The notes: generated by a model from the sequence alone, not told the origin. Counted from the first letter of the stretch, positions 8,911-49,046 are shown. The stretch: DNA of 49,046 nucleotides from an uncultured Bacteroidaceae bacterium (GCA_964414205.1 CAYPVP010000002.1:1-49046); one strand, 5' to 3'. A program made the numbers and translations.

Positions 8911-10323
8911 TCACAATCTATTTTCGGTTTCAACAATAAATATGCGTTTTGTGTCATCAATTCTTTCAATTTTCATTGTGATGATTTTGCCTGTCAAATC
9001 ATTCAATTTGTTCCACTCAATGACGGTAACTCCATTCATTGCAAGATATTCTTCAACACCTGTTTCATAAAGTTCATCAGCATTTTCAATGCGATACATG
9101 TCCAAGTGATAAAGAGGCAAACGACCACTTTCATAGGTGTTCAAAATTGTAAAAGTTGGGCTTGTGACATTTTCTTCAACACCAAGTGCTTTTGCAAGTG
9201 ATTTTGTGAATGTGGTTTTTCCTGCACCCAAATCACCATCTAGCAACAAAATTTCGCCACCAACAAGGGTTTCAGCAATTTTTTGTGCAAATGCTTCTGT
9301 TTCTTGTTCATCGTTCATCAAAAAGCGACCTGAAATTTGTTTGTCATCAATAACATTATCCATCAATAAAACATCTCCATTTGTTTGATTTTTTGTTTTT
9401 TTATGTTTGTGAATTGGTTCCCAATGCAATGCTTTTGAAAGTCCTTTGTAGGTTATGAATGTCAAAAGGCTGACAAACAAGCATCTAATCAAATTGAATG
9501 GCACAATTGCTCCAAACAAATAGCATGTATAAAAATTGTCGACAGTGACGTTTGGAAACATTGGTCTTATAGTGCCAAGCAAAGGAGCCCAATTGCCTTT
9601 AAAGAATAATTCCAAATACAAAGGAACTGAAATGAAATAGTTGACCAAAACTGAACAAAATGTAAGCAAAATTGAACCGACAGCCAAACCAATAATAGCA
9701 TTTTTGCGTGATTTTTTGTGACGATAAATCAAACTTGCTGGCAAAACAAATGCTATTCCCAACAATATATCTGTGAGTTCCCCTGAGTAACTTGTGCTTG
9801 AAAATGGCAATTTTAGCAAACATTTCAACACTATCACCAAACAGCCACTAACAGGTCCTAATGAAAACCCTGCAAGCAATGCAGGAAGTTCCGAAAACTG
9901 AATGTCTAGAAACGCTGGAAACAATGGCAATGGAAATTTGACATACATGTAAAGAATGAATGAAACTGCTGTCAACATTGCAATTTTTGCCAATTTCACT
10001 GTTGAAACAGGTTTTGCAGTTGTTTTGATTGTTGCAACTCCATCAACATAGACAATCTTTTTTCCTTGAAAAAAATTTGCAATTCGTTTTTTAAATGGCA
10101 ATTTGATTTTTTTGTGTTTGTCACAAATTGTTTCAGCATTTTGGCAAATTGATTTCAAATTTTGACAATTTGTTTCGGTATTTTCACAAGCCTCATTGCC
10201 AAAATCAACATTTGAATTGATTTTGATTTGTTGTTCTTTGCATAGATTTTCACTATGTTGTTTTTGATTGACGGCATTCAAAATTGCTCCATTGTCAATC
10301 ACATTTTCATTTTTTTGTTGCAT
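8911..10323 (-). CDS. Fusion ORF: RibU-like ECF-transporter S component (aa ~100-300) plus t6A ATPase TsaE (aa ~321-470)
   Basis: The membrane part (FLDIQFSELPALLAGFSLGPVSG, 5-6 TM) resembles riboflavin S components. The C-terminal part carries the TsaE signature GDLGAGKTTFTK...SPTFTI...YHLDMYR. There is no stop between the two parts. ATG at 10323 has an AGGAGA RBS. An internal in-frame ATG at 9363 has a GGAG 11 nt upstream. Confidence 0.8.
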   Translation of the reverse strand: MQQKNENVIDNGAILNAVNQKQHSENLCKEQQIKINSNVDFGNEACENTETNCQNLKSICQNAETICDKHKKIKLPFKKRIANFFQGKKIVYVDGVATIKTTAKPVSTVKLAKIAMLTAVSFILYMYVKFPLPLFPAFLDIQFSELPALLAGFSLGPVSGCLVIVLKCLLKLPFSSTSYSGELTDILLGIAFVLPASLIYRHKKSRKNAIIGLAVGSILLTFCSVLVNYFISVPLYLELFFKGNWAPLLGTIRPMFPNVTVDNFYTCYLFGAIVPFNLIRCLFVSLLTFITYKGLSKALHWEPIHKHKKTKNQTNGDVLLMDNVIDDKQISGRFLMNDEQETEAFAQKIAETLVGGEILLLDGDLGAGKTTFTKSLAKALGVEENVTSPTFTILNTYESGRLPLYHLDMYRIENADELYETGVEEYLAMNGVTVIEWNKLNDLTGKIITMKIERIDDTKRIFIVETENRL

Positions 10324-10419: not shown

Positions 10420-10532
10420 ATGATTTTCTTCTTTCATCCGGACTATACCGTTGGTTTGGGAGTTGCACCCAATCAACCCGAAGGCTCGTGGACTATACCA
10501 CCAGTAAGGAATCAAACCTAACCCTGAAGTAA
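10420..10532 (-). promoter_or_regulatory. FMN riboswitch (RFN element)
   Basis: Minus strand reads CTTCAGGGTTAGGTTTGATTCCTTACTGGTGGTATAGTCCACGAGCC...GGGTGCAACTCCCAAACCAACGGTATAGTCCGGATGAAAGAAG. This matches the conserved RFN core blocks (CTTCgGGGcAGGGTGaaATTCC..ACcGGCGGTa.AGtCCgCGAgC ... CCgACaGT.aAGTCtGGATG.aAGAAG). It is the only GC-rich structured block in this spacer. Confidence 0.85.
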
Positions 10533-10536
10533 TATT

Positions 10537-14464: not shown

Positions 14465-15331
14465 ATGGCAAAAAAAATTGATAGAATAGTTTTGACAATT
14501 GTGCTTCTTGTGTTCAATTTTCTATGGTTGCAAATTTTGACAAAAAACATAGCAATCACAGCAATTTTGGCGTGTTTGACAACATTTTTGATTGCATTTG
14601 TCATTTGGCAAATTGGCTCACACGTCGAAAGTTCTCCATATTCCGAAAGAGAACTTGCAGAAGAGTTTGCAATCAGAGGCAACAGTTATGCTCTGACAAT
14701 TTTTGCCCTAGCACTTCAAAACGAAAATTTTGAACTGAAAGGAAATGTTTTGGCAAGTGAAAAAACTGCCATTGTTGCAAACTTCAAACTTGGAGATTTG
14801 TCACTTTCTGATGTTTTGAACTGCTATCAACAAAACAAAAACAAGCAAACAATCATTATTTTGACAAACTCAATAAGTGCTGGATGCTTGCAATTTGCAA
14901 GACGATTCAATTCTGAAATTGAAATTGTGTCAATGAAAAACATTTTCAAGTTTTTGAAAGCAAAAAATGCACTTCCAGTGATTGAAAAACGAAAATCAAC
15001 ATTTTCTTTCAAAGATTTTTTCAGCATATTCTTCAAACAAAAAAATGCTAAATATTTTTTGCTGACATCAATTCCACTTTTGATTTTTTCATTTTTGACA
15101 CCAATGAAAATTTATTACATCATAATGTCGGCCGTTGCCATATGTTTTGCCATTGTTTCAATGTTGCCATTTGCTCATGACAATTCAGGTGATGGAACAA
15201 ATTTCAACAAACTGACAAAACAAGCACTGCCCAAAAAGAAAATCAAAGATTTCTTTTCATCAAATGATGAAAATCTAAATTTGCGAATTCAAAACGCTGA
15301 TGTTGAAAATCACAATGAAAAGAAAAAATAA
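14465..15331 (+). CDS. Hypothetical membrane protein
   Basis: 288 aa. Two N-terminal and two C-terminal TM helices flank a soluble core of about 130 aa. No family recognised with confidence. Confidence 0.6.
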   Translation: MAKKIDRIVLTIVLLVFNFLWLQILTKNIAITAILACLTTFLIAFVIWQIGSHVESSPYSERELAEEFAIRGNSYALTIFALALQNENFELKGNVLASEKTAIVANFKLGDLSLSDVLNCYQQNKNKQTIIILTNSISAGCLQFARRFNSEIEIVSMKNIFKFLKAKNALPVIEKRKSTFSFKDFFSIFFKQKNAKYFLLTSIPLLIFSFLTPMKIYYIIMSAVAICFAIVSMLPFAHDNSGDGTNFNKLTKQALPKKKIKDFFSSNDENLNLRIQNADVENHNEKKK

Positions 15332-35485: not shown

Positions 35486-38470
35486 CTAAGCAATATTTCC
35501 ATTTTTCAATCTTTGATAAGTTTTTACTGCATTGATTGGTGTAAACAACTGTTCAGGGTCATCATCAGGTGTAATCACTGGCTTTTTGTTGTCATAGCAA
35601 TAGAATGACATTGGATAATTTACAGGGAAAGTCTTTCCGGGAACCAAATTTGCAAATGTGCTCAAATCAAGTTGAGTGGTCAATGTCAAGCCAGACAAAA
35701 CTCTGCTGTCTTCCGAAATGACACCTCTTTCAGGATAGTGAACACCGATGTTTGCAACACCCAATTGGAAATATGGTGTTCCATCTTTTGACAAGCAACG
35801 CAAGACATCTCCATTTGAAGTTCCATTGAACGTAAACAAATTTTTGGTTGTGTTCCAACTTGTAGTTGTCAAAGTTCTCATTGTTTCCGTAATCAAGTTT
35901 GCCGTTGATTTGTTCATTCCAAACTCTTGAACAAAAGTCATGTCAAGTTGTTGAGATTTTTTCCAGTTGTAAATGTCACAGAAACCTTCAAATTCCAAAT
36001 TAGAATGTGAAACTTGTCTAAAATAGATTTCATAGGCAGGAACATATGTTCCAGGTTTTTCAGGGTCTTCAATCGACTGATCCAAAATTGAGTCAAGGTT
36101 TTCAGTGACAAGCCCAATTGAAATGTTCATTGAATTTGTGAAAATTGAATTTTTCAATTTTACATTTGAATTCATTTTGTTTTTCAGTGTCTTTCCTTCA
36201 TAGATGTCTTGAACGCTTGTGTTGACATAAAGTGTTTGTCCACCAGAGTTTCTCATGACACTTCCTTCAATTTTGACATCAGATGCTGCAACATAGACAC
36301 AGTTGAAAGCATTTTCAATCAAACAAAATTCAACACTGACATTAGAAAGTCTTTCATCTTTGTTTGCCAAATATTTGTTTCTGCCATCAACAACAATTCC
36401 ACTTCCAACTTTGACATAGTTGAACAATGAGATGCTGTTGTTTGAACTTGATTCAATGTTGTTTCCAACTCTGACTTTAACATTTTTTATGCTGACATCA
36501 TCAACAACAACTTTCAATGCTGAAACATTTTTGGTGTCTTTGAAATCAGTTTCTTCATCACCAACAATAGGCATTTCGGCATCTTCTGTCATCATCTTGA
36601 TTGTGTTGCCATTTCCAAAAAGATTGCAGAACAATTCTTTGTCAAAATATTGTCCATTCTTTTGACCAAGAGTCATGTTGTTGTGCAAAACGATTGCAAA
36701 ATTGTCATGTTTTCTTTCGTTGTCCATTTGTTGTTTTGCAAGGTTATTGACAAAATCATAGCCTTCTATCGTCAGTGTATTGATTTCAGATTGAACTTGT
36801 TTGTCTGTTTTTCCTGAATTTGCAAATGTTTCTGCACTTTCTTTTGAAACAAAGCCAACGTTGACAGCGTTGTCAACAAATTTCATAGTATAAGAAATTG
36901 AAACATTGACAGATTTAAACAATGGATATTTTGATTTGATTGTGACAGTAACTGATTGTGATGTCGCATCAACATTCAACAAACCATCTTGTGTCAATGT
37001 CGAACCATTGCGTTTGGCATCTTCATCAATTGACCATTCAAGCAAATATTTATAATTTTCAATTTCAGAAAGAGTATCAATGTTTTTGGCTTCTTTGCCA
37101 ACCAAAGTATAAATCGAATTGATTTCAAATTGGAAACTGTCAACAAGGGTATTTGAAGATACATCATAAGTCTTCTTTCCAAAGACACGGTTCATTTCAA
37201 TTCCTGCTTTTTTGTCATCACTTGATTTCAAAGTCAGTTCAACTGAATAGACAGGTGGCAAAACTTGAATTTCAAAACTTTCTTCAATTCCGTTTGATGT
37301 TGCCGAAATTACAACTTTTCCAACACCAACAGGAACAATCATTCCATTTTCAATTTTGACAATGCTGTCATTTGAAGATTGAATTTCAACATTTTGGAAA
37401 ACAGATTTCATTTCAACATATTTTCCAATGCTTCCAAGTGTCAAATATGGGTTTTGTGTTCCATCAACAACTGCCCACATGTCAACATTGTAGAAAGCAA
37501 TTTTTTTGAAATTGACTTTTGTTGCAAAAGTTTGTTTTAAAACACTTCCTTCATAAATTTTGGCTTCTATGTTTGCTTCAACAAGATTGTTGCTGTTTTC
37601 AAAATTTACATTGAGAACTTTGTCAACAACACTTCCAACATCAGATTGATAGACAACTTTTTTTCCTGTCATATCAAAATTTGAATTTACGATTGAAGAA
37701 ATGTCAAACTTTCCAACATTTTCTATGCTTGATGCAACAAAATCGAATTCATTTGTCACAAAATATTTTTCATTTGATGCATTTGAAACTTTAAATGTAT
37801 ATTCAGCAAATCTATCGTCTTCAGACATCTCTTTTGGAGGATTTTTGAGTGTAGCACGAACAGTTACATTTCCAGACTTCAATGCTGTCACAACACCATT
37901 TTTGTCAATTGAAACAAACTCATTTCCTTCAACAATTTTCCAATCAACATATTGTTGTTCCATTTTTGCATCTTGTGGGTTCAAAACTGCTTCAAGTTGG
38001 TGTCTGTCGCCAACTGAAAATGAAGTTGGAACATTGTCTGCAATGTTGATTGAAACAACATCTGCACTTGTGACAATGACACGAATTGTTGTTGACACAT
38101 TGCCTTCGGCTGTTGCAGTGATTTCAGCAGTGCCCAAACTTTTGAATTTGACAAGTCCTGAGTCAGAAACTGACAAAACCTTGGTGTCTTCAACAGAAGC
38201 AACACCATCTTGTGGACTCCATTCAACTGTCTTTACATTTGCCTTTGAAGGATAAACTGTTGCTTTGAGTTGCATAGTTTCTTCATTGATGTATGCAATC
38301 AAAGTTTTTTGTGGGGAAAGTTCTAGCAGTGTTCCATCAACATTTTGCCTATAAATCGAAACGCCTTCAACAGAAACATAACCTCCTGGAATAACAGAAG
38401 CAGTCAAACTTACAATCAAAATTACTATCAATGGAATAATCATTAACATTCCAAGCAAAAATTTCTTCAT
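35486..38470 (-). CDS. Large N-terminally anchored surface protein with Big_2 (Ig-like) domains and a probable right-handed beta-helix region
   Basis: Start ATG at 38470 (MKKFLLGMLMIIPLIVILIV is a TM segment or signal anchor). Big_2-like segments include ATVYPSKANVKTVEWS...GTAEITATAEG and LEAVLNPQDAK...SGNVTVRATL. The later region has repetitive N/V/S beta-strand periodicity. Confidence 0.7.
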   Translation of the reverse strand: MKKFLLGMLMIIPLIVILIVSLTASVIPGGYVSVEGVSIYRQNVDGTLLELSPQKTLIAYINEETMQLKATVYPSKANVKTVEWSPQDGVASVEDTKVLSVSDSGLVKFKSLGTAEITATAEGNVSTTIRVIVTSADVVSINIADNVPTSFSVGDRHQLEAVLNPQDAKMEQQYVDWKIVEGNEFVSIDKNGVVTALKSGNVTVRATLKNPPKEMSEDDRFAEYTFKVSNASNEKYFVTNEFDFVASSIENVGKFDISSIVNSNFDMTGKKVVYQSDVGSVVDKVLNVNFENSNNLVEANIEAKIYEGSVLKQTFATKVNFKKIAFYNVDMWAVVDGTQNPYLTLGSIGKYVEMKSVFQNVEIQSSNDSIVKIENGMIVPVGVGKVVISATSNGIEESFEIQVLPPVYSVELTLKSSDDKKAGIEMNRVFGKKTYDVSSNTLVDSFQFEINSIYTLVGKEAKNIDTLSEIENYKYLLEWSIDEDAKRNGSTLTQDGLLNVDATSQSVTVTIKSKYPLFKSVNVSISYTMKFVDNAVNVGFVSKESAETFANSGKTDKQVQSEINTLTIEGYDFVNNLAKQQMDNERKHDNFAIVLHNNMTLGQKNGQYFDKELFCNLFGNGNTIKMMTEDAEMPIVGDEETDFKDTKNVSALKVVVDDVSIKNVKVRVGNNIESSSNNSISLFNYVKVGSGIVVDGRNKYLANKDERLSNVSVEFCLIENAFNCVYVAASDVKIEGSVMRNSGGQTLYVNTSVQDIYEGKTLKNKMNSNVKLKNSIFTNSMNISIGLVTENLDSILDQSIEDPEKPGTYVPAYEIYFRQVSHSNLEFEGFCDIYNWKKSQQLDMTFVQEFGMNKSTANLITETMRTLTTTSWNTTKNLFTFNGTSNGDVLRCLSKDGTPYFQLGVANIGVHYPERGVISEDSRVLSGLTLTTQLDLSTFANLVPGKTFPVNYPMSFYCYDNKKPVITPDDDPEQLFTPINAVKTYQRLKNGNIA

Positions 38471-38755
38471 ATCTTCTCCGTGATGAAAAGAAAACAATTG
38501 GAATCTAAAATTCCAGCGTTTTCTAAAAACATTCATTCATTTTAGCATATAGAAATGCAAAAATCAACAATAATATCTTTCTCACATGGTGTAGAAAAGA
38601 CTATGTTCTTTTGGCAAAAATTTTGTCTATGAAAATCAAAATGACAAATTGCAAACAAAACTATTCCGATTTATGAACAAAAGCGTTACGAAAAATAAAA
38701 AATTTTGAAGGATAATGACAAAACTCAACATAACTACAATATTTTAAACTTTATA

Positions 38756-38813: not shown

Positions 38814-39614
38814 ATGAAAAAACGAACAAATTTAATTGCAGTTGTTGTGTTGCTTTTGTTGTTTGCGTTGCCAATTCTTACGGCTTGTGATGATGACAAA
38901 TTGTCTTATGATTTCATCTCGGGTGATTTTGGCTACAAAATTGTCAGTGACACAACTGTTAGTCTAACTTTTTTGCACAACAAAAATTTGGAAAATGCAA
39001 TCATTCCATCAAAAGTTGAACATGAACAAAAAACTTACAGCATCACTTCAATCGGCGAAGGTGTTTTTGCACCCGTTGCAACAGGAATGTCACTCAATGA
39101 AATTTTTCACTACTCACCAGAATTGGATGACAAAAATGACAAATTGAAAACCGTTGCATTTGCACCAGATTGTCAAGTGGAAAAAATTGGAAACAGGGCT
39201 TTTGAAAAATGCAAAGCAATGCAATCAATCGCGCTTCCTGAATCATTGAAAGAAATTGGTGGTTTTGCGTTTTACAAATGCGAAAATTTGACTGAAATTT
39301 CTTTGCCAAAAAATGTTCAGGAAATCAAAGACTTTGCTTTCACAGGCTCATCAAAACTTGCAAAAGTTGTTTTGGAAGTCACCGACAAAGACAAAATTCC
39401 AAAACTTGGTGCTCAAACTTTCAAAATTTATGACAGTTCACAAGCAGGCTTCATGAGTTCAACAAATCCATATCAGATAATTGAAAATTTAAAAATTTTT
39501 GTTGGAAGTCAAGAAATTGCTTCTCAACTTCAAAGTTTTCAAACTTCAACAATTGTCGAATATAGAAATTGGTTTGATTATACAGCAAAAAATTTGGCTG
39601 TCATAGGTGGTTGA
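38814..39614 (+). CDS. Lipoprotein with BspA-type leucine-rich repeats
   Basis: Signal peptide plus lipobox (LPILTAC). LRR_5-like repeats read IGNRAFEKCKAMQSIALPESLKEIGGFAFYKCENLTEISLPKNVQEIKDFAF. Confidence 0.75.
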   Translation: MKKRTNLIAVVVLLLLFALPILTACDDDKLSYDFISGDFGYKIVSDTTVSLTFLHNKNLENAIIPSKVEHEQKTYSITSIGEGVFAPVATGMSLNEIFHYSPELDDKNDKLKTVAFAPDCQVEKIGNRAFEKCKAMQSIALPESLKEIGGFAFYKCENLTEISLPKNVQEIKDFAFTGSSKLAKVVLEVTDKDKIPKLGAQTFKIYDSSQAGFMSSTNPYQIIENLKIFVGSQEIASQLQSFQTSTIVEYRNWFDYTAKNLAVIGG

Positions 39615-39615
39615 A

Positions 39616-41484
39616 ATGGAAAACAAAGAAATGATTTTGACAAATGAATCTGTCTGTGATGAAAAACAAAATTGCAAAACCTATTCCAGCAAAGAACGCA
39701 CATGGTATCTTCTTGGCGTTGCTGGACAAAATGTCATCTATAATATAGTTGGTGCTGCGCTTGCCTACTATTTGCAATTCACATTGCTAATTCCTGCTCT
39801 ATCGGTTGGTTTGATTATGTCTTTGGCACGAATTTGGGACGCATTCAACGACCCAATGATGGGCACACTTGTTGACATGACCCGTTCAAAGTTTGGAAAA
39901 TGCCGACCATATTTGATGGCAATTCCAGTGCCAATTTTGGTCATAACAATTTTATGTTTCACAAACTTTGGTTTTTATGGAGAAGGCGTCGTTTCAAATG
40001 GTTTGATTGTTGGTTGGGCAGCCTTTACATATGTTTTGTGGGGAATGATTTACACTGTCGGCGACATTCCAATGTGGGGAGTTTCTTCCTTGATGACAGA
40101 ATCAGAAAAAGACAAAAACAAATTGCTTTCTCTTGCCAGAGTCGCTGCTGGAATTGGAGGAGGAATCACACTTTTGGCAATGCAACCATTGTCACTTGGG
40201 CTTGGTGAACTTTTGACCAACACATCTCTTGCAAACGGAAACCCTGCCGTCGGAGAAAAATATGGTTTTTTGATTTCAGCCGTAATCTTTGGCATCATTG
40301 GAACTTGTGCATTTTTGCCAATGGGATTCAAAATCAAAGAAGTTATAAAGCCAATTGGAGAAAAGAACTCTTTTGGAAAAAACATAAAAATTGCAATGGG
40401 CAACAAGCCATTCAGACAAATTATTTTTTCAGGAATTTTGGGAAGCACAAAAATGATGATTATGCTTGCAGCAATGCCACTCATCACCTACTATTTCTCA
40501 TCAAAAAGCCCTATTTTGGCACTTGTCTACATGGTTTTGCTTGGAGGAGGATTTTTCATTGGACAATTCATTTCAATGATTTTCACTCCAAACCTTTTGA
40601 AATTTGTTAGCACCAAAAAACTCTACAACTTGTCTAACTTGGCAGGAGTTCTTCCATTTTTGTTGATTTTTGTGATTTTCTTGATTTCGCCAAGTGGCCT
40701 CACACACCCTGCTTTCGTTTTCTTGGCATTCCTTTTGTTTGTGATTTGTGGAGGGTCAATGGGCATCACAACCGTTTTGCAATCAACAATGATTGCAAAT
40801 GCCATCGACTATGAAGAATACACAAACCATCGCCGTCCTGATGCCGTATTCTTTGCTGGTCAAACCTTTGTCACAAAACTTCAAACTGGAATTGCAACAA
40901 TCATTTCTGCTCTTGCCTATACCATTGTTGGTTTTTCAGATTTCAGAGTTGCTGAACTCAACGCCTATATTTCAGCAGGAGGCACACCAAGACTTGTTGG
41001 CGAATATGGCTCATTCATGATGATTTTGTTTTTCATTGTTTCAATTCTTCCAGCAATAGGCTCTTTGCTTTCAATCATTCCAACTTGGAAATATTGCCTT
41101 GATGATGATGAGCACAAACGAATTTTGACAGTTTTGCGTGCAAGAAGAAAAGCAAATTTAGCAGGTGAAGAATTCACTCTTGACAATGAAAAGGAACTTT
41201 CACAACAATTTGAAATTGCACTCAAAGAGCAAAAAGAGAAAGAAAAACTTGAAAGAAAATCTAAAAAATGTGCAAACAAAAAACACAAGAACAATTCAAA
41301 TGAAAGCGATGCAGAAGATTTGCACAACAACGAAATTGAAAGTGAAAATGAAAGCGAACAACTCGACAATTCCAGCAACGCCAATCAAGAAAGTTCTTCG
41401 ACCAATGACAAACAAGAATGTTCTTCGACCAAACAAGAAGGCAGTTCTCAAAATATTGAAGAAGAAGACAACACCAAAGAATAA
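39616..41484 (+). CDS. GPH-family (MelB/GusB-like) glycoside-pentoside-hexuronide:cation symporter with a ~140-aa charged C-terminal tail
   Basis: Family motif RIWDAFNDPMMGTLVD and about 12 TM segments. The ATG at 39616 follows AGGTGG. The tail runs from about aa 480 and is K/E-rich, then S/N/E-rich, with a 27-nt duplication (41386..41405 and 41413..41432). Confidence 0.8.
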   Translation: MENKEMILTNESVCDEKQNCKTYSSKERTWYLLGVAGQNVIYNIVGAALAYYLQFTLLIPALSVGLIMSLARIWDAFNDPMMGTLVDMTRSKFGKCRPYLMAIPVPILVITILCFTNFGFYGEGVVSNGLIVGWAAFTYVLWGMIYTVGDIPMWGVSSLMTESEKDKNKLLSLARVAAGIGGGITLLAMQPLSLGLGELLTNTSLANGNPAVGEKYGFLISAVIFGIIGTCAFLPMGFKIKEVIKPIGEKNSFGKNIKIAMGNKPFRQIIFSGILGSTKMMIMLAAMPLITYYFSSKSPILALVYMVLLGGGFFIGQFISMIFTPNLLKFVSTKKLYNLSNLAGVLPFLLIFVIFLISPSGLTHPAFVFLAFLLFVICGGSMGITTVLQSTMIANAIDYEEYTNHRRPDAVFFAGQTFVTKLQTGIATIISALAYTIVGFSDFRVAELNAYISAGGTPRLVGEYGSFMMILFFIVSILPAIGSLLSIIPTWKYCLDDDEHKRILTVLRARRKANLAGEEFTLDNEKELSQQFEIALKEQKEKEKLERKSKKCANKKHKNNSNESDAEDLHNNEIESENESEQLDNSSNANQESSSTNDKQECSSTKQEGSSQNIEEEDNTKE

Positions 41485-41699: not shown

Positions 41700-41930
41700 A
41701 AAGTTTCAATGTCATCATTGTCCCATCTCTCAATGTTCAATCTTTCATTGCCCTATCTTTCAATGTGTCGTCATTTCCCAATCTTTCAATGTTCCATCTC
41801 TCATTGTTCAATCTTTTAAGTTTCATATTTCATTACCATATCTACCAATGCTCAATCTTTTATTGTCAAATGTTTAATCTCTCAATGTTCTATCTATCAT
41901 TGTTCAACATCTCATTGCTCAATGTCATCA
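41700..41930 (-). repeat. Degenerate ~12-nt direct-repeat array repeating the stop-proximal sequence of the sipW-like gene
   Basis: About a dozen copies of the plus-strand motif TCAATGTTCNATCTYTCATTG (minus strand AACATTGARAGAT). The identical 12-mer tcaatgtcatca occurs at 41706..41717 and at 41919..41930, the latter inside the gene's 3' end. Confidence 0.8.
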
Positions 41931-42703
41931 AAATCTTTGTCATTTCTATCAAACAAATCATCATTTTCTAAATCTTTTGTTTTTTCTTCACATTCTTTTT
42001 TGTCAGCACTCTCATCAACATTTTGTTCTGACAAGTTTGACAACAATTTCGTTTTTTCTTCATCAGTCAAGTTCTTCAATTTTTCAGCAAGCATTTTGTT
42101 TTCAAGTTCAATTTTCAAAATTTTTTTGTCATCTTTCCCCTTATCCTTTATATATTGAAGGATAATCAAAATCAAAACAATCAACAACGGCAATGCAATG
42201 ACAACAATATAACCTGTTGGCGTGACCAAAAACTTCATAAACTTTCCAAGAGTTGGCAAGTTTTTCACCATGATTGAAGAAATGTCAGTCGCTTTGATTT
42301 TTGGGTCTTCCGAAAAATTGGCATCACCTTTGGTTGTCACCCAAACGACTCCATCTTTGTCTGTTTCGACATCTACAACACGGTGCGTAAGGTTTCTTCC
42401 ACCAAGGCTAGAACTTGGATAAGTGACAATTTTGCCAATGGTGATTTCATCAATAGAACTCACTTCTTTTGCAAGAATAATTGTGCCAACTTCCAATTCA
42501 GGTTCCATAGATGGTGTCAAAACAGTATAGAAATAGTGTCCAAAAATTTTGGGTTGCTGTTTTGATGATTTTTGAACAATAACCATCACAAAAATTGCAC
42601 AAAGAAAAATTGCAACAATTGCTACAATGACATTTGAAACAATTTTGTAAATTTTCTTTGCTTTTTCAACTTTCAATTTTTTATCGTTTTTGCAATCTGT
42701 CAT
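41912..42703 (-). CDS. SipW-type (S26B, archaeal/ER-like) signal peptidase I with an extended charged C-terminal tail
   Basis: N-terminal TM, catalytic Ser block LTPSMEPEL, His block LTHRVVDV, KGDAN, a C-terminal TM (YIVVIALPLLIVLILIIL), then a ~75-aa K/E/D tail. Confidence 0.85.
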   Translation of the reverse strand: MTDCKNDKKLKVEKAKKIYKIVSNVIVAIVAIFLCAIFVMVIVQKSSKQQPKIFGHYFYTVLTPSMEPELEVGTIILAKEVSSIDEITIGKIVTYPSSSLGGRNLTHRVVDVETDKDGVVWVTTKGDANFSEDPKIKATDISSIMVKNLPTLGKFMKFLVTPTGYIVVIALPLLIVLILIILQYIKDKGKDDKKILKIELENKMLAEKLKNLTDEEKTKLLSNLSEQNVDESADKKECEEKTKDLENDDLFDRNDKDFDDIEQ

Positions 42704-42728
42704 ACTTTATTCCACACAACCAATTTTT

Positions 42729-42838
42729 GCCAACATTTAACAACTTTTTCGCTAACATTTGCTAATATTTGCCTACAAATGTATTTCTGAAATAGTGCCT
42801 AACAATGTGTTGAAACGACAATTTCAAAGCCTACAATT
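42729..42838. repeat. Six copies of a 10-mer GCYWAYAWWT in the spacer upstream of the sipW-like gene
   Basis: gccaacattt at 42729, gctaacattt at 42751, gctaatattt at 42761, gcctacaaat at 42771, gcctaacaat at 42797 and gcctacaatt at 42829. Three copies are exactly tandem (42751-42780). Confidence 0.75.
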
Positions 42839-42859
42839 ATCTGTTCCAAGTTGTCTAAG

Positions 42860-45430
42860 TTATTCCTTGTTTTGCTCATCATTTCTTGTAGTTTTTTCAA
42901 TTTCAATCATTTCATCTTTATTGTTCAAAGATTTTTCATTGTCATTTTCTACATTCTTTTCATTTTCAACAACTTCAACAACAAGATTTTTTTTCTTTGA
43001 CTTTTCATTTCGTTTTCGATTTGAATCAAAAACCACTTTTGTTCCAAAATCAATTTTCATTGCATCATTGATTGAATTTGTAGAAATTGAAATCTTTCCA
43101 ACTGACAATTTTGAAGAATCAACATCTGAAATTTTAATTTTCTTTCCAGTTGCTTTTGAATATTTTTGATTTGCAGTGGTTTTGCTGATTGTCCATGAGT
43201 TTTTGTTTTCATCAACTTTGACAATTCTTGCATCAATGTCGCCTACCAATTTTTTGGCTTCGTCCAAAACAAAAGCGTCTTCCACTAGTTTTTTTGCTTT
43301 TGAAAACAACTTTTCATCTTCTCGTTGTTGTTTCAAAATTTCTCTTTCTTCTTCTTTTCGTTTTTCTCTTTCGATTCTTTCGGCTTCTTTTATCTTCTCT
43401 TTTTCGAGTCGCTCAATTTCTTTTTGCTTTTCTTTTTCGAGTCTTTCAGCCTCTTTGATTTTTTCTCTTTCGATGCGCTCAATTTCTTTTTGCTTTTCTT
43501 TTTCTAGTCTTTCGGCTTCTTTTTGTTGTTTTTCTTCAAGTTGTTTTTCATTCAACTTGTTTTTTTCATCTTGGTCATCATCTGCTTTGTTCTCAACAGA
43601 TTCAGTTTTATTTGCCACACTTTGACCAAAATCAAACTTTTCAATGTTTGGTTTGTTTTCAAGATTCATGTTGCCAATCGAAAGTTTTTTCTTGATTTCT
43701 TCAATGTTTGCCTCTTTTGGTCTGACATCAAGTTCTTCAATTTCATCATCAGAAATTTGAGGCAATTTGATTTTTGCAACATCATCAACAAATGAATTTC
43801 CAAGTGCCACGCCCAAACTTTCAGAAAGCAATTCAGTTGAACGATGTTTGCGAAGTGCCTCGGCCCTCATTGCATTGTCACGTTGTCGTTTTGTTTCCGT
43901 TTCACGAAGTTGGTTGTCTTTTTTGATTTTTTTGTAGGCATTCAAACAACGGTCGATGGCATCTTTGATTTTCATCATTTCTTGTTGTTTGAGTTTGTCT
44001 TCATCAGGTCTTTTATAAACTTTTCTTATGTCAAAAACGAATTTGTCAAATTGAGAATCATCAACTTCTTTTTCATTTTCATCATATTTTGGAAGCATAT
44101 CCTCATGAATTTCTTTTCCAGAACCATGAGAATCAGTTGAATTGTCTGTTGATTTTTGAGAGTCGTCGCCCTCTTTTGAAGTATCTTTGACATCGGTGAT
44201 ATTTTCAGATTGACCTTGCACCTTTTCATCGGTTTTTTGCGATGTTTCGTCAGCATCAACTTGGTCTTGTTTTTTAAGTTCAGGGGCTTTTGTTTTGTCA
44301 TCATCCCCTTTGTCGCTATCAAAATCAAAAGATTCGGCTTTTTCATCAGATTTTTCAACTTCTTTCTCTTTTTCTTCAACAGCCATTGAGTCTTGAAATT
44401 TTTGAGCCCAAGGGTCACGTACAATTTTGTCTGGCAAAAAGTCCAATTCTCCAACTCGCATAATGTCAATAAATTCACTGTCTTTGTCAGCCTTTTTGAC
44501 ATCATCGCTTGTTGATTGGTCATACATGCTTTCAAAAATCATAGAGTTGAGAGCAACCATATTTCTGAGTCTTTCATTGGTGTCATTGTCAATTGGCAGT
44601 TCTTCAACTTCATCTGTGGTCGAAAAGCCACCTGTCACTTGATAGGTTTCAATGAATTGCCACAAAACAAGAGCCTTTTTGAAGTTTGGTTCTTTCAAAA
44701 TGACGTTTGTTCTTGAAATTGGAGGTCTGACAGGTGCGCAATGTCGCATTGCTTTTGCAAAAGATGAAGACAAAAAGTCCGTGACAATTCGGTCAATTTT
44801 TGCAATTCTTTCAACTTTTGTCAGTGTTTCAGGGTCCAACTGCATGACTTCATCAAAAGAAAGTTGTGCCAAATATTCAGTTCGATAACTAATTTTCTTT
44901 TCAGGCAAATTATATCGTGATTCAACTTCCATTTGCAAAACATCTTGTGTGGCAGTCGCTTTTTTGATTTTGTCATATCTCAAAGTGACAAAATCTTTTA
45001 TTTTCAAAAGCAAAGTGTAAATAAATCGGTTTTCATAGATTTCAAAAGATTCTTCTTTTGTGATGTTCAAAATTTTTGATGGAGTAACACTGCCATCTTT
45101 GTCAACCTTTGAAATCATGTTGGTGTGCTGTGCAAGGTGTTTGACTGATTCAGTAGAAATTGAGCGAGCAAGCGAAACATCAACAATGTCTTCTTGTTGA
45201 ACAATGAATTTTCGAGGGTTTCGGACAATGTGGTCGAGGTTTGGCAAAATTTCTTCAATGGTGTCAATCCAATCAATGCTTATGTCTTGAACAAGTCTTT
45301 TTTTGTTCATTTTTATGTTTGAAGCACCAGATTCTATCTTTTTTTTGTATGTTGAAAAGAAGTCCTCATCTTTCAAGACGGAAACAATTTTATTTGCATA
45401 TTCAAGATATTGTTCTCTTGTTGTAGCCAT
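42860..45430 (-). CDS. Large hypothetical protein: N-terminal globular domain (possibly McrC-N/DUF2357-like) plus a long acidic/basic low-complexity and E/K/R-repeat region
   Basis: ATG at 45430 (MATTREQY) with an AAGGGGA RBS; the ORF-track start is a TTG. The N-terminal ~290 aa are ordered and include EESFEIYENRFIYTLLLKIKDFV, which resembles the McrC block ...LANRIIKSTLAIL. The remainder is D/E/K/S-rich. I could not find a PD-(D/E)xK motif by eye. Confidence 0.6.
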   Translation of the reverse strand: MATTREQYLEYANKIVSVLKDEDFFSTYKKKIESGASNIKMNKKRLVQDISIDWIDTIEEILPNLDHIVRNPRKFIVQQEDIVDVSLARSISTESVKHLAQHTNMISKVDKDGSVTPSKILNITKEESFEIYENRFIYTLLLKIKDFVTLRYDKIKKATATQDVLQMEVESRYNLPEKKISYRTEYLAQLSFDEVMQLDPETLTKVERIAKIDRIVTDFLSSSFAKAMRHCAPVRPPISRTNVILKEPNFKKALVLWQFIETYQVTGGFSTTDEVEELPIDNDTNERLRNMVALNSMIFESMYDQSTSDDVKKADKDSEFIDIMRVGELDFLPDKIVRDPWAQKFQDSMAVEEKEKEVEKSDEKAESFDFDSDKGDDDKTKAPELKKQDQVDADETSQKTDEKVQGQSENITDVKDTSKEGDDSQKSTDNSTDSHGSGKEIHEDMLPKYDENEKEVDDSQFDKFVFDIRKVYKRPDEDKLKQQEMMKIKDAIDRCLNAYKKIKKDNQLRETETKRQRDNAMRAEALRKHRSTELLSESLGVALGNSFVDDVAKIKLPQISDDEIEELDVRPKEANIEEIKKKLSIGNMNLENKPNIEKFDFGQSVANKTESVENKADDDQDEKNKLNEKQLEEKQQKEAERLEKEKQKEIERIEREKIKEAERLEKEKQKEIERLEKEKIKEAERIEREKRKEEEREILKQQREDEKLFSKAKKLVEDAFVLDEAKKLVGDIDARIVKVDENKNSWTISKTTANQKYSKATGKKIKISDVDSSKLSVGKISISTNSINDAMKIDFGTKVVFDSNRKRNEKSKKKNLVVEVVENEKNVENDNEKSLNNKDEMIEIEKTTRNDEQNKE
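43340..43540 (-). repeat. In-frame 66-bp (22-aa) tandem repeats encoding KEAERLEKEKQKEIERIEREKI
   Basis: cgctcaatttctttttgcttttcttttt recurs at 43410 and 43476, a period of 66. A third, more diverged copy lies upstream. Confidence 0.8.
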
Positions 45431-45715
45431 AAAATTCCCCTTCACCAACAATCAAATTTTTCACTTCAAATGTTGCATTTCAAATTTGTTTTGACATTTT
45501 TTGCTAAAAGCCTAACAAACAATTTGCATCATTTTTTGCTTTCAACATTGCCTTTGAAATTTGCTTTTTCAATGTTCTTTGTCTCAACTTGTCAATTTTT
45601 ATGACAAACATTGATTAGTTTTCAAGTTGCAACTTGCTTTTGTGCAAAAATTTGGGTGAGTTTAAAACATAATTTCAAAGCACAAAATTTTGCACAGTGC
45701 AAACACAACAACAAA

Positions 45716-47221
45716 TCAAAACAACTTTTTCAAACGGTTCAAATAGTCTTTGCATTCCATCATGTTTTCTTCACCAAACTGTTCAGAAAGATACAAAATG
45801 AAACCGTCAATTTCATCACGAATGTATGCTAAGTTCAAAGATTCAAACTTTCTCAAAATCTTGTTACACAAGACATAGTCGAGTCCATCAATTTCAGTTC
45901 CACCACAAGCAACATAGACAGGGACAAATTCTTTCAACTGTTTGACAATACGGTTTCCAAACGCAAGACGGAAGTGTTCAATGACAAAGTCATCAAGTTT
46001 GTTGATTTTTTCAAGGTTCTCTTTTGAAACTTGATGTTCTTTTTGTGCAGTTTTAAACATCGCTTCAACGTGTTCATAACTGATTGTCAACTCATCTGCT
46101 TCTGGACATTCAAAAGGAACACCTTTACTGTTGATGTTGATTGGAATTGCACGGTCATAAACTTTGTCGGAAATTGCAAAAGTAGAGTCATCGTTGTTTG
46201 CAGTTCCGATAAACCACATATTTTGTGGAAGTTGGAAACGACCTTTGACAATGTGTTTAGGGTCACTTGGCCAACCTGATGGAACAAGGTCAACAATCCA
46301 TTCATCACGAGATGGCATTTCCAAAATAGAAAGCATTTCAGCAAAATAGTATTCAACACGTGCGATGTTCATTTCGTCCAAAACGGTGAGATAGATGTTT
46401 TTGTTCCAAGTTGCCTCATACATTTTTTTCAAAACTTCGGTTTCGTTGAAACGCTTTGTAAATTCGTTGAAATAGCCAAAAAGTTCGGTTCTGTCACGCC
46501 AAGAAGGTTGAACAGAAGCAATTGTTGCAGGGTTTTTCAAAAAGACACCCATAGCGTGAGGCAAAGAAGTTTTACCTGTACCAGAAATACCTTGCAAAAT
46601 CAACAATCTAGTTGTGGACATACCAGCAATAAACAGTCTGATGACTTTGACTTCATAGAACAATCTCATTTTTGAACAAGCAAAATGCCTGAAACGGTCG
46701 CAAAGTTGTTCCAATGTGATTTCATTGTCATATTCAGGGTCAACATAGTTTTCATAAATTTGGTCAATTTCTGACAATTTATAAAAACGAGATTCGCCTG
46801 CATCGGCTTTCTTTTCTCCGTCTTCGCCATCTTCACCATCGAAGTTGCCAGTATCGCTGATTCGCATGCTCAAAATTCTGTCTTTTTCAGCCGTAATTCT
46901 GACAATTTGTTTTTTCAAATTTGCACATTCTTCAACAAGGTCTTGTGGCAAAACCTTTTTTGTGCTTATTCTGACAAGTTTTCTGATTCCAAAAACCAAA
47001 AGCCAAATGACAGCGATCAAAACTGATGCCATCAAAATGATAAAAATTGATGCCACAGCCCATTCGCCTGCACCAAAATTCGTTGTTAAATTTGAAAGTG
47101 CCAATTGATATTCTTTAAAATTGAATATTCCTGCAATTCCCAAAAAAATTCTTCCAAGTCCTTGTTCCCAAAATGCACCCAAAAATGCGCGCAAGAACTC
47201 AAAAACTGCGTCTATGTTCAT
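45716..47221 (-). CDS. Membrane-anchored McrB-family (AAA_5) NTPase
   Basis: ATG at 47221 (MNIDAVFEFL) with a GGGAGA RBS. Hydrophobic N-terminus (GRIFLGIAGIFNF; WAVASIFIILMASVLIAVIWLLVFGI). Walker A LILQGISGTGKTS, VQPSWRDRTELFGYF, Walker B plus the McrB signature YLTVLDEMNIARVEYYFAEMLSILE, and FQLPQNMWFIGTANNDDS...DRAIPINI. Confidence 0.75.
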   Translation of the reverse strand: MNIDAVFEFLRAFLGAFWEQGLGRIFLGIAGIFNFKEYQLALSNLTTNFGAGEWAVASIFIILMASVLIAVIWLLVFGIRKLVRISTKKVLPQDLVEECANLKKQIVRITAEKDRILSMRISDTGNFDGEDGEDGEKKADAGESRFYKLSEIDQIYENYVDPEYDNEITLEQLCDRFRHFACSKMRLFYEVKVIRLFIAGMSTTRLLILQGISGTGKTSLPHAMGVFLKNPATIASVQPSWRDRTELFGYFNEFTKRFNETEVLKKMYEATWNKNIYLTVLDEMNIARVEYYFAEMLSILEMPSRDEWIVDLVPSGWPSDPKHIVKGRFQLPQNMWFIGTANNDDSTFAISDKVYDRAIPININSKGVPFECPEADELTISYEHVEAMFKTAQKEHQVSKENLEKINKLDDFVIEHFRLAFGNRIVKQLKEFVPVYVACGGTEIDGLDYVLCNKILRKFESLNLAYIRDEIDGFILYLSEQFGEENMMECKDYLNRLKKLF

Positions 47222-47389
47222 TATGTCTCCCTTTTGCACATTTGTGCCACGCCCCAAAACTCATGCTTTTTGCCATGTTCACGACCACTTGTCGCTTGGT
47301 TTCAAAAACGCTTTGATTTGTTTTGAATTCATGCTTATTGCCATTTCTAAACAACCATAAGTTGTTCTTCATTCAAAAAAATTCAAGGG

Positions 47390-47413
47390 GGCTTGCGAAA
47401 TGAGTTGCAAGCC
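47390..47413 (-). other. GC-rich hairpin (possible terminator or attenuator between sipW-like 2 and the McrB-like gene)
   Basis: ggcttgc (47390-47396) pairs with gcaagcc (47407-47413). On the minus strand it is followed by cccttgaattttttt. Confidence 0.4.
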
Positions 47414-47433
47414 GTTAAATTTTCAGTTTTATC

Positions 47434-47459
47434 TTTGAAAGTTCAAATGAACTTTCAAA
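47434..47459. promoter_or_regulatory. Perfect 12-bp inverted repeat (operator-like palindrome)
   Basis: tttgaaagttca-aa-tgaactttcaaa, about 215 nt upstream of the McrB-like start codon. Confidence 0.45.
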
Positions 47460-47519
47460 ATTTGTCTTTTTGTTTTGCATGCAAAGTTTTTGTCATGCAA
47501 CATTTCTTTATTTTTGATT

Positions 47520-47720
47520 TTTTTCTTCGTTACAACTACTTTGTTGTTTTTTCGTTACAACATATTAGTTGATTATGTTTCAACAATTTGTTGTTAATTG
47601 CCCAACTCATTGTTTTTGTTCAACTATTTGTTGTTAATTGCCCAACTATTTGTTGATTTATTCAACTATCTATTGTTTATTTTTCAAGTAATCGTTATTT
47701 TCATTCAACTAGTTGTTATC
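47520..47720 (-). repeat. Degenerate direct-repeat array repeating the stop-proximal sequence of sipW-like gene 2
   Basis: About 8 copies of the minus-strand motif AACAA(A)TAGTTG(A/G). A perfect 22-bp direct repeat atttgttgttaattgcccaact occurs at 47586..47607 and 47626..47647. ttcgttacaac occurs at 47526 and 47551. The palindrome caactagttg spans the TAG stop. Confidence 0.8.
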
Positions 47721-48608
47721 GTTGTTGTCTTCAAATGAATTATTTTCGTCTTGAATTGCAATGTCGTTGTTTTCAACTTCATCATGCAAAACACTTTCTT
47801 CTTGTTTTGTTTTTTCTGCTTGAAGTTTCAAAAGCAATTCCATTTTTTGTTCATCAGTCATTTGGTCAAGCGACAATGATGCGCCATTTGCGACTTCTTG
47901 TTGAAGTTTTGCTTTCATTTTTTCAGTTCTCAACTTGATGACTGAATTGACAAAGAAAGCAAGATAGACAACCAACAAAAGAATGAGTGGCAAAACAATT
48001 GCACACAAATAGGCTATTTTGTCATCTTGCAATGTCAAAATCAACTTTCCAACTTTTCCAACTCTGCCACCTTCCCAAACTGCAACAACATCATCAATGA
48101 CTCGATACTTGTCATCTCTGCCCGCAGTGTTGTCACCTCTTGTAAAATATCCAGTTATATATACTGGGGCTTTACCATCTTTGACTTCTTCGGGGTTGGT
48201 GAGCACAGTGTCAATTGAATCAATTCTGTGAGTGTTCAAAACCTTGTTATCGCCAATTTGTTGCCAAAAAGTGATGACAGTTCCAACTTTCAAGTCACTT
48301 CCGTCACCATCATAAAGTTTGGTGAAAATCAAATCATATTGATTGAATGCAGGTTCCATTGAGTCAGACCTAACTGGCATGATTGCCCAACCAAAAATGT
48401 TTGCAACACCTTTTCCATTTTTGTCCAATCTTGTGATTGAAGAAATGGACACTCCCAAAGTGGAAATGACAATGAAAACAGCCAACACAGTTCCCACAAT
48501 GGATAGTGCTTTGCGAACTTTCATTTGTTTTGCTGTCATTGGTTTTTTTTCTTTCTTTTGTTTTTTCAAAGTTTTTTCGTTGTTATTGTTCATAATCTCT
48601 CTCTTCAT
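47709..48608 (-). CDS. SipW-type (S26B) signal peptidase I, second paralog, with an extended charged C-terminal tail
   Basis: N-terminal TM (ALSIVGTVLAVFIVISTLGV), Ser block RSDSMEPAF, His block NTHRIDSI, RGDN, a C-terminal TM (YLCAIVLPLILLLVVYLAFFV), then a ~75-aa tail. The start is the ATG at 48608 or 48593. Confidence 0.85.
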   Translation of the reverse strand: MKREIMNNNNEKTLKKQKKEKKPMTAKQMKVRKALSIVGTVLAVFIVISTLGVSISSITRLDKNGKGVANIFGWAIMPVRSDSMEPAFNQYDLIFTKLYDGDGSDLKVGTVITFWQQIGDNKVLNTHRIDSIDTVLTNPEEVKDGKAPVYITGYFTRGDNTAGRDDKYRVIDDVVAVWEGGRVGKVGKLILTLQDDKIAYLCAIVLPLILLLVVYLAFFVNSVIKLRTEKMKAKLQQEVANGASLSLDQMTDEQKMELLLKLQAEKTKQEESVLHDEVENNDIAIQDENNSFEDNNDNN

Positions 48609-48844
48609 TCATAAATTTTGTCACAAGTCTAGCCATAGAATGTATAACTATTTTAGTTGAAAAAGCATTGAATGTCAATAGTGAAAGACATTCAAATAAT
48701 AAACAATTATCACAGGCAATATATTTGAATTTAGCATTTTGTTTTTGTTCAAATTTGAGTTTGTTTGCAAGCAAAAATTTGAGTGCAAATAGAAATCAAA
48801 AAATTATTTTGAGTGAATAAAAATTTTATGATTATGGGGTGTGG

Positions 48845-49046
48845 GGCTTGAACTTGGCTTGAACTTGGCTTGGCTTGGCTTGGCTTGTACTTGGCTTGTA
48901 CTTGGCTTGGCTTGTACTTGGCTTGTACTTGGCTTGTACTTGGCTTGGCTTGTACTTGGCTTGGCTTGTACTTGGCTTGGCTTGGCTTGTACTTGGCTTG
49001 TACTTGGCTTGTACTTGGCTTGTACTTGGCTTGTACTTGGCTTGTA
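48845..49046. repeat. Satellite built from 5-mer GGCTT and 11-mer GGCTTG(T/A)ACTT units, running to the window edge
   Basis: Direct reading gives ggcttgaactt x2, ggctt x3, then irregular alternation of ggcttgtactt and ggctt to position 49046. It is GC-richer than the flanks. Confidence 0.9.

Follow-up and report, generated by a model that had tools for sequence, protein, structure and literature searches.

Within a stretch of 49,046 nucleotides from an uncultured Bacteroidaceae bacterium (GCA_964414205.1, CAYPVP010000002.1:1-49046; the window, in what follows, is this whole stretch), four genes lie in the same direction on the minus strand and form a block that very probably belongs to the CoCoPALM class of McrB-type systems. 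They encode an S26B signal peptidase of the archaeal/endoplasmic reticulum type (SipW-like 2, 47709-48608, 299 amino acids), a membrane-tethered McrB-family GTPase of the NxD type (45716-47221, 501 amino acids), a McrC homologue without a nuclease (42860-45430, 856 amino acids, no transmembrane (TM) segment) and a second SipW-type peptidase (SipW-like 1, 41912-42703, 263 amino acids). All four open reading frames (ORFs) are present where an earlier note on this DNA had placed them. We read the block as part of an envelope machine, chromosomal and conserved in lineages of gut Bacillota, in which a McrB-type GTPase serves surface-fibre assembly or secretion, and we give this reading a probability of roughly 55%. 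The GC content of the block is 32-37%, the same as in the rest of the window, and the spacers within it are long (157-488 bp). Extended mechanically, the GTPase ORF reaches a TTG at 47257 and 513 amino acids; it is taken here as 501 amino acids from the ATG because its homologues begin at ATG. The McrC homologue measures 856 amino acids from its ATG and 863 from a TTG at 45451.

A search of PDB sequences with the GTPase returned Escherichia coli McrB as its only match (E 2.1e-5), with the Walker A, Walker B and Asn/Asp signature motifs aligned. NCBIfam McrB matched at 3.3e-5 and Pfam AAA_5 weakly, and the proposed membership of the McrB family is thereby upheld. Walker A is GISGTGKT (46568-46591, minus strand; residues 211-218), in which G211, G214, G216, K217 and T218 are invariant, and Walker B is VLDEMN (residues 280-285). 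The McrB signature takes the shortened NxD form N342-N-D344-D345 (46187-46198, minus strand) within GTANNDD (339-345); across 15 diverse members, aligned down to 33% identity, N342 and D344 never vary, and position 345 is D, E or Q. The layout ahead of the AAA+ GTPase domain comprises an N-terminal hydrophobic segment, one TM segment, a short helical stalk and an acidic linker. The N-terminal anchor suspected earlier is a single strong TM segment at about residues 55-80 (WAVASIFIILMASVLIAVIWLLVFGI; 46982-47059, minus strand; hydropathy peak 3.14), followed by a helical, heptad-like stretch of 30 residues. Since the basic RKLVRISTKK stands right after the TM segment, the positive-inside rule would place the GTPase domain in the cytoplasm. 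As far as sequence can predict topology, these features show a GTPase with intact nucleotide-binding motifs, tethered by one TM helix at the cytoplasmic face of the membrane.

The first ~300 residues of the McrC homologue (44531-45430, minus strand) form a DUF2357 domain, the N-terminal domain of McrC, which includes NPRKFIV, EEDIVD and FEIYENRFIYTLL and is 74-78% identical to close relatives. When the first 317 residues were searched alone, they matched PF09823 (DUF2357) with 34.4 bits (cutoff 23.3), and the model was matched by all 16 homologues as well; Pfam found nothing with the full-length 863-residue form, probably because of the compositional bias of the tail, and the isolated N-domain was needed. 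The YENRFIYTLL block, likened to McrC N-domains in the earlier note, falls inside the Pfam DUF2357 match (residues 57-159), in agreement with that comparison. The tail is longer than 500 residues and consists of charged low-complexity sequence besides its repeats. These 22-residue E/K/R repeats, which had also been seen before, were recovered by Tandem Repeats Finder (TRF) as a 66-bp period in 2.6 copies with 84% matches (43352-43523, minus strand; EKQKEIERLEKEKIKEAERIER...; 36% D/E, 35% K/R), and are predicted to form a charged helix or coiled coil. Neither a nuclease nor any other domain was found beyond DUF2357 with Pfam, NCBIfam or PADLOC, as the inspection by eye had indicated. Cys is absent from residues 501-856, which have one His, and the shortest DUF2357 orthologues have 362-377 amino acids. 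Taken with the gene order described below, the DUF2357 protein is shown, at the level of prediction, as a cytoplasmic protein and the obligate neighbour of the GTPase. A small module at its extreme C terminus (42860-43250), 'W(T/A)(I/L)SxTTxNQKY...GK...D..K(L/V)SVGxI', follows the variable charged tail and is conserved within Christensenellales; seemingly related internal copies, 'LWGG(N/D)A(N/T)LG', occur at 14700-14921 of one relative's locus (L004), and another locus (L001) has no such module.

Both peptidases are, to judge from their profile scores, SipW-type, yet not orthologues of SipW. SipW-like 1 scores 78.2 bits with TIGR02228 (cutoff 51.85) and 91.5 bits with NF046067 (4.8e-26); SipW-like 2 reaches 46.2 bits with TIGR02228, just under the cutoff, and 57.1 bits with NF046067 (1.8e-15), and despite the sub-cutoff score its sequence clearly places it in the same family. 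The cutoff of NF046067, the Bacillus subtilis SipW equivalog, is 190 bits and is reached by neither. The catalytic Ser/His motifs are kept, as TPSMEP and THRV in SipW-like 1 and as SDSMEP and THRI in SipW-like 2. The latter has its N terminus inside, a TM segment at ~35-58, an extracytoplasmic catalytic domain that includes RGDN, a second TM segment at ~200-225 and a 70-residue cytoplasmic tail with 'MTDEQKMELLLKLQAEK'; SipW-like 1 has the same topology, and its charged cytoplasmic tail of ~70 residues carries 'LTDEEKTKLLSNLSEQ'. The picture of two archaeal-type peptidases with cytoplasmic tails flanking the GTPase pair thus holds, on profile scores, catalytic residues and topology alike.

The tails themselves carry a motif. 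In relatives, the peptidases of the cluster share a conserved amphipathic '...(D/E)EEIK(R/K)(R/K)A(I/V)EEYLAxQ...', at times in two or three tandem copies (e.g. loci L033, L034 and L044). A strict regular expression, [KRQE][KRQA][AV][IVM]x[ED][YF][LIV] ('...EEIKRRAIEEYLA'), was matched by 53 of 137 cluster SipW ORFs and by 0 of 3,229 unrelated ORFs of the same loci. The two peptidases of the window have diverged forms of the tail, 'LTDEEKTKLL' and 'MTDEQKMELL' (41912-42120 and 47709-47900), and the SipW of B. subtilis is not known to carry the motif. The motif is the obvious candidate for the part that would connect the peptidases physically with the GTPase/DUF2357 pair in the cytoplasm. Peptidase number varies as well: two loci of the Bacilli/Clostridium sp. 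CAG:567 type (L082, 3501-10000; L085, 3212-10000) have four tandem SipW paralogues of 174-198 amino acids upstream of the GTPase and one downstream.

The earlier note could not assign the block to any named system; it does, however, fit a class that has been described. Bell et al. (2024, eLife; PMC11090510) defined a major branch of McrB that has NxD in place of the longer NxxD signature, with D or E as the usual next residue, and within it a large clade, CoCoPALM, whose GTPase is fused to an FtsB-like TM/coiled-coil module. The same authors reported coiled coils on the McrB and McrC homologues of this clade, an association with signal-peptidase-family genes and hosts among the Bacillota, all in a single paragraph, with the analysis deferred to a future paper (PMC11090510). 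Our literature searches for CoCoPALM found only this paragraph and no follow-up paper, and a co-mention of SipW and McrB in a Clostridium perfringens paper turned out to be an E. coli strain genotype only. The block has the McrB GTPase, the NxD signature, the adjacent DUF2357 McrC homologue and the signal-peptidase genes of the class. Its GTPase carries an N-terminal TM and helical module that may correspond to the FtsB-like one of the published members; its DUF2357 protein has a charged extension that may be their coiled coil and, as in those members, no nuclease. No feature of the block contradicts membership, which we hold with high confidence.

GTPase homologues number in the thousands, with 60-80% identity in many metagenome-assembled genomes (MAGs) of Clostridia; at E<=1e-30 they form 758 representative clusters (50% clustering), and the full architecture of ~500 amino acids is kept down to ~35% identity. 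When one genome per species was scanned, at least 598 species carried a relative, and the best 80 loci were analysed. Their carriers belong to the Christensenellales (the closest, with 78% identity), Oscillospiraceae, Acutalibacteraceae, Ruminococcus and Lachnospiraceae, and also to the Bacilli, the Erysipelotrichaceae and MAGs labelled 'Mycoplasmatota'; the cultured Ruminococcus sp. FC2018 and Eubacterium ruminantium FB3002 are among them. By the closest match, the window itself would probably come from the Christensenellales. Co-occurrence was counted from naive ORF calling with self-built hidden Markov models (HMMs) on all locus ORFs, including models for two kinds of paralogue that we call Pil and TMx, whose profiles cross-match (124 shared matches). 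The usual order in relatives is EAL - TMx - Pil(s) - SipW - GTPase - DUF2357 - (SipW) - (more Pil), and the SipW-McrB-DUF2357-(SipW) core recurs in this order in Christensenellales and Oscillospirales as well as in Lachnospiraceae and Bacilli. Of 73 evaluable loci, 70 have the DUF2357 gene downstream of the GTPase; of 74, 73 have a SipW gene, and in 49 of 67 a SipW gene stands immediately upstream of the GTPase. For the 47 loci that extend 5 kb or more in both directions, the counts are 31 with two SipW genes, 41 with a Pil/TMx member and 31 with a gene for an EAL-domain protein.

These counts bear on whether the four genes form a system at all. Spacers of 157-488 bp would leave room for a promoter before each gene, which would suit a chance adjacency of four independent genes; the order kept in 70/73 and 73/74 loci, together with the overlapping or abutting cluster genes of L001, refutes it, and we give it practically no weight. 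The conservation of the genes as neighbours, which the earlier note had left to a check across relatives, is confirmed by the same numbers.

They bear equally on whether the block is a defence module, in which a McrB-like ring would sense infection and membrane components would kill or arrest the cell. Such an anti-phage or abortive-infection role would follow the descent from McrBC type IV restriction and has a parallel in the sister CoCoNuTs, which are predicted defence systems (PMC11090510), and the GTPase domain matches the PADLOC candidate PDC-M26A at 8.5e-37. The match is, however, confined to the GTPase core (residues 197-319 against profile positions 313-436 of 724) and is explained by the shared NxD GTPase clade rather than by membership of PDC-M26; no other gene of the block matches PADLOC. 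A nuclease or other toxic effector domain is missing, and McrC-like orthologues of 362-377 amino acids are too short to hold one. Very strong conservation, in housekeeping contexts and across at least 598 species, sets the GTPase apart from defence genes, which are patchy and turn over fast, and no full-length copy occurs on a sequenced plasmid or phage. The constant partners of the GTPase are instead secreted, structural-looking proteins and their peptidases. The defence hypothesis of the earlier note has no specific support, and we consider this role improbable.

On plasmid and phage records, no match covers at least 80% of the GTPase; the partial matches are GTPase-core relatives of at most 40% identity. 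One of them lies at 40037-41104 of MT835511.1, an unannotated human-gut 'Bacteriophage sp.' contig, with 35% identity over residues 169-458, and probably represents a different McrB of the NxD clade, outside CoCoPALM. The flanks of the relatives' loci are housekeeping genes (nusB, xseAB, dprA, topA). The earlier suggestion of an accessory region is not sustained, given flat GC, 60-80% identity across many Clostridia lineages, the at least 598 carrier species and the lack of a full-length plasmid or phage copy; an accessory island was rejected also on the tandem repeats found window-wide and on the ordinary chromosomal flanks (MFS_2, BspA-LRR and Big_2 genes). Conservation is uneven along the block: against three close loci (L004, L006 and L007), identity is 82-83% in the GTPase domain, 63-67% in its N-module and 74-78% in the DUF2357 domain, and 28-35% in the SipW cores and ~25% in the McrC tail. 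A constrained cytoplasmic motor with fast-evolving exposed parts is what would be expected of a surface-structure machine and not of a defence gene.

The genes that accompany the core in relatives point the same way. A cluster encodes one to several Pil proteins, which have 200-877 amino acids and an N-terminal signal peptide ending in ...(S/T)(S/T)AT(Y/F)AWF(T/S)..., often with a C-terminal WxEGxDxDC; the signal motif TAT(Y/F)AWF occurs in 60 of 93 Pil ORFs. Five N-termini were compared with TIGR04088, 'SipW-dependent-type signal peptide': one, of a Pil protein, scored 23.1 bits (cutoff 19), one 17.1, and three did not match. TMx paralogues share the Pil C-terminal domain, with WxEGxDxDC in 79 of 81 ORFs, and begin with a charged cytoplasmic tail and a TM helix in place of the AWF signal, which suggests an uncleaved, membrane-anchored form. 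No Pfam domain was found in the Pil family at E up to 1, Peptidase_M73 included, nor did any source give an informative name; no LPXTG sorting signal was found. The AlphaFold model of the Pil orthologue at locus L004 is confident and all-β (pLDDT 86.7, pTM 0.84), with the region of the predicted cleavage site disordered, and its weak Foldseek matches are generic β-sandwich adhesins, carbohydrate-binding modules and pilins. On the strength of this model, Pil and TMx are a new family of predicted β-sandwich proteins. The EAL domains of the cluster are recognisable (1.1e-13), and in alignment the Lys of the catalytic K-x-D is mostly missing and the position equivalent to DDFG is variable. By this comparison, which is not a rigorous one, we infer that the domain is degenerate and possibly senses cyclic di-GMP (c-di-GMP). 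The EAL protein at locus L004 (3712-5490, Christensenellales) has a long K/E-rich linker and no evident TM segment, and the EAL protein elsewhere is only ~250 amino acids long; C-terminal repeats in the L004 protein, 'G(Q/N)WVDxDGNV(F/Y)xGYFDxxGxW', resemble cell-wall or YD-type repeats.

The same partners weigh on a role in cell division or sporulation, in which an FtsB-like module would bring the GTPase to the septum or forespore and SipW would process division or spore-coat proteins. The N-terminal module is called FtsB-homologous by Bell et al. (PMC11090510). Our Pfam searches found no significant match to FtsB or DivIC in this module, and FtsL_2 matched at E 0.05-0.1 in two of six N-modules, which leaves the FtsB/FtsL similarity below significance. 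A veg gene and a SipL-like gene lie near one relative's locus, yet such neighbours are not conserved across loci, unlike the secreted β-sandwich proteins and the EAL protein. Nor are the reduced Bacilli/Mycoplasmatota-type and Christensenellales carriers known as spore formers. We regard a division or sporulation factor as very unlikely.

The earlier note had offered, as its other hypothesis, that the NTPase drives a machine of the envelope or of secretion whose components or substrates SipW processes. This is the better of its two hypotheses and the one we favour, the relatives' clusters encoding proteins with SipW-type signal peptides. As we picture the machine, the GTPase would form a McrB-like hexameric ring beneath the membrane, hung from six TM/helical stalks, and the DUF2357 domain would plug and activate the ring as McrC does in McrBC, serving as activator or shaft. 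The ring would not translocate DNA; its GTP cycle would be coupled to the SipW peptidases, the N-terminal tail of TMx or both, through the membrane anchors, the coiled coils and the peptidase tails. This coupling would gate the cleavage of Pil precursors and the addition of subunits to a surface fibre anchored by TMx, with the EAL protein providing a c-di-GMP input by analogy with FimX-type control of type IV pili.

The same gene set would also suit a secretion or processing checkpoint, in which a McrB/DUF2357 GTPase switch, perhaps responsive to c-di-GMP, toggles or positions the SipW peptidases and so governs the release of matrix or adhesin proteins, without a defined pilus. The conserved motif in the peptidase tails, which face the cytoplasm, suggests that the enzymes are controlled from inside the cell, the cluster EAL domains look degenerate, the Pil fold matches no known pilin or fibre subunit, and Pil paralogues of 200-877 amino acids without shared known domains resemble a repertoire of adhesins. 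Yet a hexameric AAA+ ring with a pore-plugging partner would be a costly device for a simple switch, and a near-universal TMx beside cleaved paralogues looks like an anchor with its subunits. The checkpoint therefore seems to us unlikely, if the most serious of the rivals.

Several results weigh against fibre assembly or secretion by a McrB-type ring, the reading we prefer. Fibre formation is purely inferential, and a cytoplasmic ring would have to pass its work across the membrane. Foldseek of the Pil model against PDB and viral models gave no significant match (best PDB E 6.5e-3, TM <0.2), and TasA is not among its top 50 matches, which leaves the signal peptide and the association with SipW as the sole grounds for the analogy with a TasA-like fibre subunit; the Pil alignment profile likewise had no meaningful match among PDB sequences. 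On the McrC side, hhalign of a 53-sequence N-domain profile with E. coli McrC (a sequence identical to 6HZ4_M) gave a probability of 0.1, the DUF2357 alignment profile had no meaningful match among PDB sequences, and the DUF2357 structure model is mediocre (pTM 0.50), with nothing found by Foldseek against PDB. The FtsB homology of the GTPase N-terminal module was not reproduced with Pfam. Crude ORF calling, custom HMMs and the cross-matching of Pil and TMx lie behind the co-occurrence counts. Of the loci that extend 5 kb or more in both directions, about six of the Bacilli type lack Pil/TMx genes. Six minimal loci of the Bacilli/Mycoplasmatota type (L051, L054, L066, L071, L075 and L076) consist of the GTPase, a DUF2357 protein of 362-377 amino acids and short SipW genes, with no Pil/TMx within 10 kb and, in L071, no SipW either; their substrates may be encoded elsewhere, or they may work in a different mode. 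Finally, no Pil-type signal peptide came up when all six reading frames of the window were scanned for the motif, and the window is thus without a substrate gene. The window picks up the canonical order only from the SipW gene on and stops at 49046, so that the other, upstream half of the cluster, with the Pil, TMx and EAL genes, is to be expected immediately past that end.

A bolder version of the favoured reading can be stated tentatively, as a possibility that we hold to be rather less than even. CoCoPALM would be an unrecognised surface-filament machine of monoderm gut bacteria, in which a restriction-derived GTPase ring and a McrC-like shaft dock on the '...EEIKRRAIEEYLA' tails of the SipW peptidases and on a TMx base, and drive the c-di-GMP-controlled polymerisation of a β-sandwich pilin. 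Should this function be right, the motor of a restriction enzyme has found a second use, driving or gating a surface-fibre system, and the tail motif could join the cytoplasmic GTPase to extracytoplasmic processing. The carriers are hundreds of gut and rumen Firmicute species, among them Christensenellales, Ruminococcus/Acutalibacteraceae, Lachnospiraceae and RF39-like Bacilli, whose adhesion and biofilm biology is barely known, and the cultured carriers make the hypothesis directly testable.

As regards the non-coding sequence of the block, a promoter-like TTGACA-17-TAAAAT (48650-48678, minus strand; 11 of 12 consensus matches) stands ~40 bp upstream of sipW-like 2 and, as a consensus match, may be where transcription of the four genes as one unit begins; promoter and terminator consensus sites in the region are, in total, at chance level. 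The earlier note had every spacer carrying its own repeat array. TRF found arrays at 41710-41907, 45452-45487 (weak) and 47522-47717 and none in the 42704-42859 spacer, so that the statement holds only in part. Small intergenic tandem arrays also occur elsewhere in the window (seven in 41.7 kb); those of the block are larger and lie in its unusually long spacers. The arrays at 47522-47717, which fill the 488 bp separating sipW-like 2 from the GTPase gene, have 22-, 25- and 40-bp periods, with quasi-palindromic CAACAAATAGTTG / GGGCAATTAACAAC units and a ~40-bp repeat; the quasi-palindromic units could be operator sites. At 41710-41907, a tandem array of 15/30/56 bp with TCATTGTCCAATCTT-like units separates sipW-like 1 from a convergent MFS transporter gene and is crossed by short spurious ORFs.

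The flanks are those that had been described, an MFS_2 sugar transporter at 39607-41484 and a satellite at 48845-49046. The satellite has ~18 copies of the 11-bp GGCTTGTACTT, with a GGCTT-insertion variant, and reaches the last base of the window. At this place, upstream of sipW-like 2, relatives encode Pil/TMx, and the satellite may indicate a break in the assembly instead of a boundary in the genome itself. The sugar transporter (plus strand) has an unusual low-complexity tail of ~120 residues, rich in K/E/S/N, past its last TM segment. Near the block are also a 1,016-residue Big_2-domain surface protein (35486-38536, minus strand) and a BspA-type leucine-rich-repeat (LRR) lipoprotein (38814-39614, plus strand), in a surface-protein-rich part of the genome. 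Farther away, an FMN riboswitch (RF00050, 98.9 bits; 10422-10535, minus strand) lies upstream of a minus-strand ORF at 8911-10323.

Canonical McrBC is one of the known systems closest to the block. In McrBC (PDB 6HZ4/6UT6; Niu et al. 2020, as cited in PMC11090510), McrB is a GTP-dependent hexamer, and the N-domain of McrC enters its pore and stimulates hydrolysis via the signature Asp. The block shares with it an AAA+ GTPase with aligned Walker A, Walker B and signature motifs and a DUF2357 partner gene immediately downstream, and by analogy it may share a hexameric ring plugged and activated by that partner. It differs in having NxD instead of NxxD, a TM anchor in place of the DNA-binding N-domain, no PD-(D/E)xK nuclease and no hhalign similarity to E. 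coli McrC, and its partners are peptidases and secreted proteins, not methyltransferases. CoCoNuTs, the sister NxD clade, have the same NxD GTPase core, coiled-coil extensions and frequent loss of the McrC nuclease. They are, however, soluble and always accompanied by HEPN or other nucleases and by RNA-binding domains, whereas the present cluster has a membrane anchor, no nuclease and envelope partners. The CoCoPALM class itself had been named before and was known from genes alone; absent from its published paragraph are the Pil/TMx family with its candidate substrates and its TMx form, the degenerate EAL partner, the duplicated peptidases and the peptidase-tail motif that are seen here.

The tapA-sipW-tasA operon of B. 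subtilis and the archaeal bundling pili (AbpA) resemble the cluster in the dedicated archaeal-type signal peptidase beside secreted β-rich substrates, in the SipW-cognate signal peptides (TIGR04088 reached by one member) and in an anchor paralogue beside cleaved subunits, as with TapA and TasA. Pil proteins, on the other hand, are by the Peptidase_M73 and Foldseek searches not homologues of TasA or camelysin, the peptidases score far below the SipW equivalog cutoff, and the operon is without an NTPase, to which the CoCoPALM cluster would add a GTPase ring. No component showed homology to the type IV pilus, Tad and archaellum systems: the NTPase here is of the AAA+ McrB type and not of the PilB/VirB11 type, the peptidase is a SipW-type serine enzyme cleaving after the hydrophobic core and not a PilD-type aspartyl enzyme, and no PilC platform was seen. 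In design these systems nevertheless match the machine proposed here, with a cytoplasmic hexameric NTPase, a dedicated signal peptidase, paralogous secreted subunits and a c-di-GMP input, which here would come from a degenerate, FimX-like EAL protein. If the filament reading is true, the CoCoPALM machine would be a functional analogue of type IV pili built from unrelated parts.

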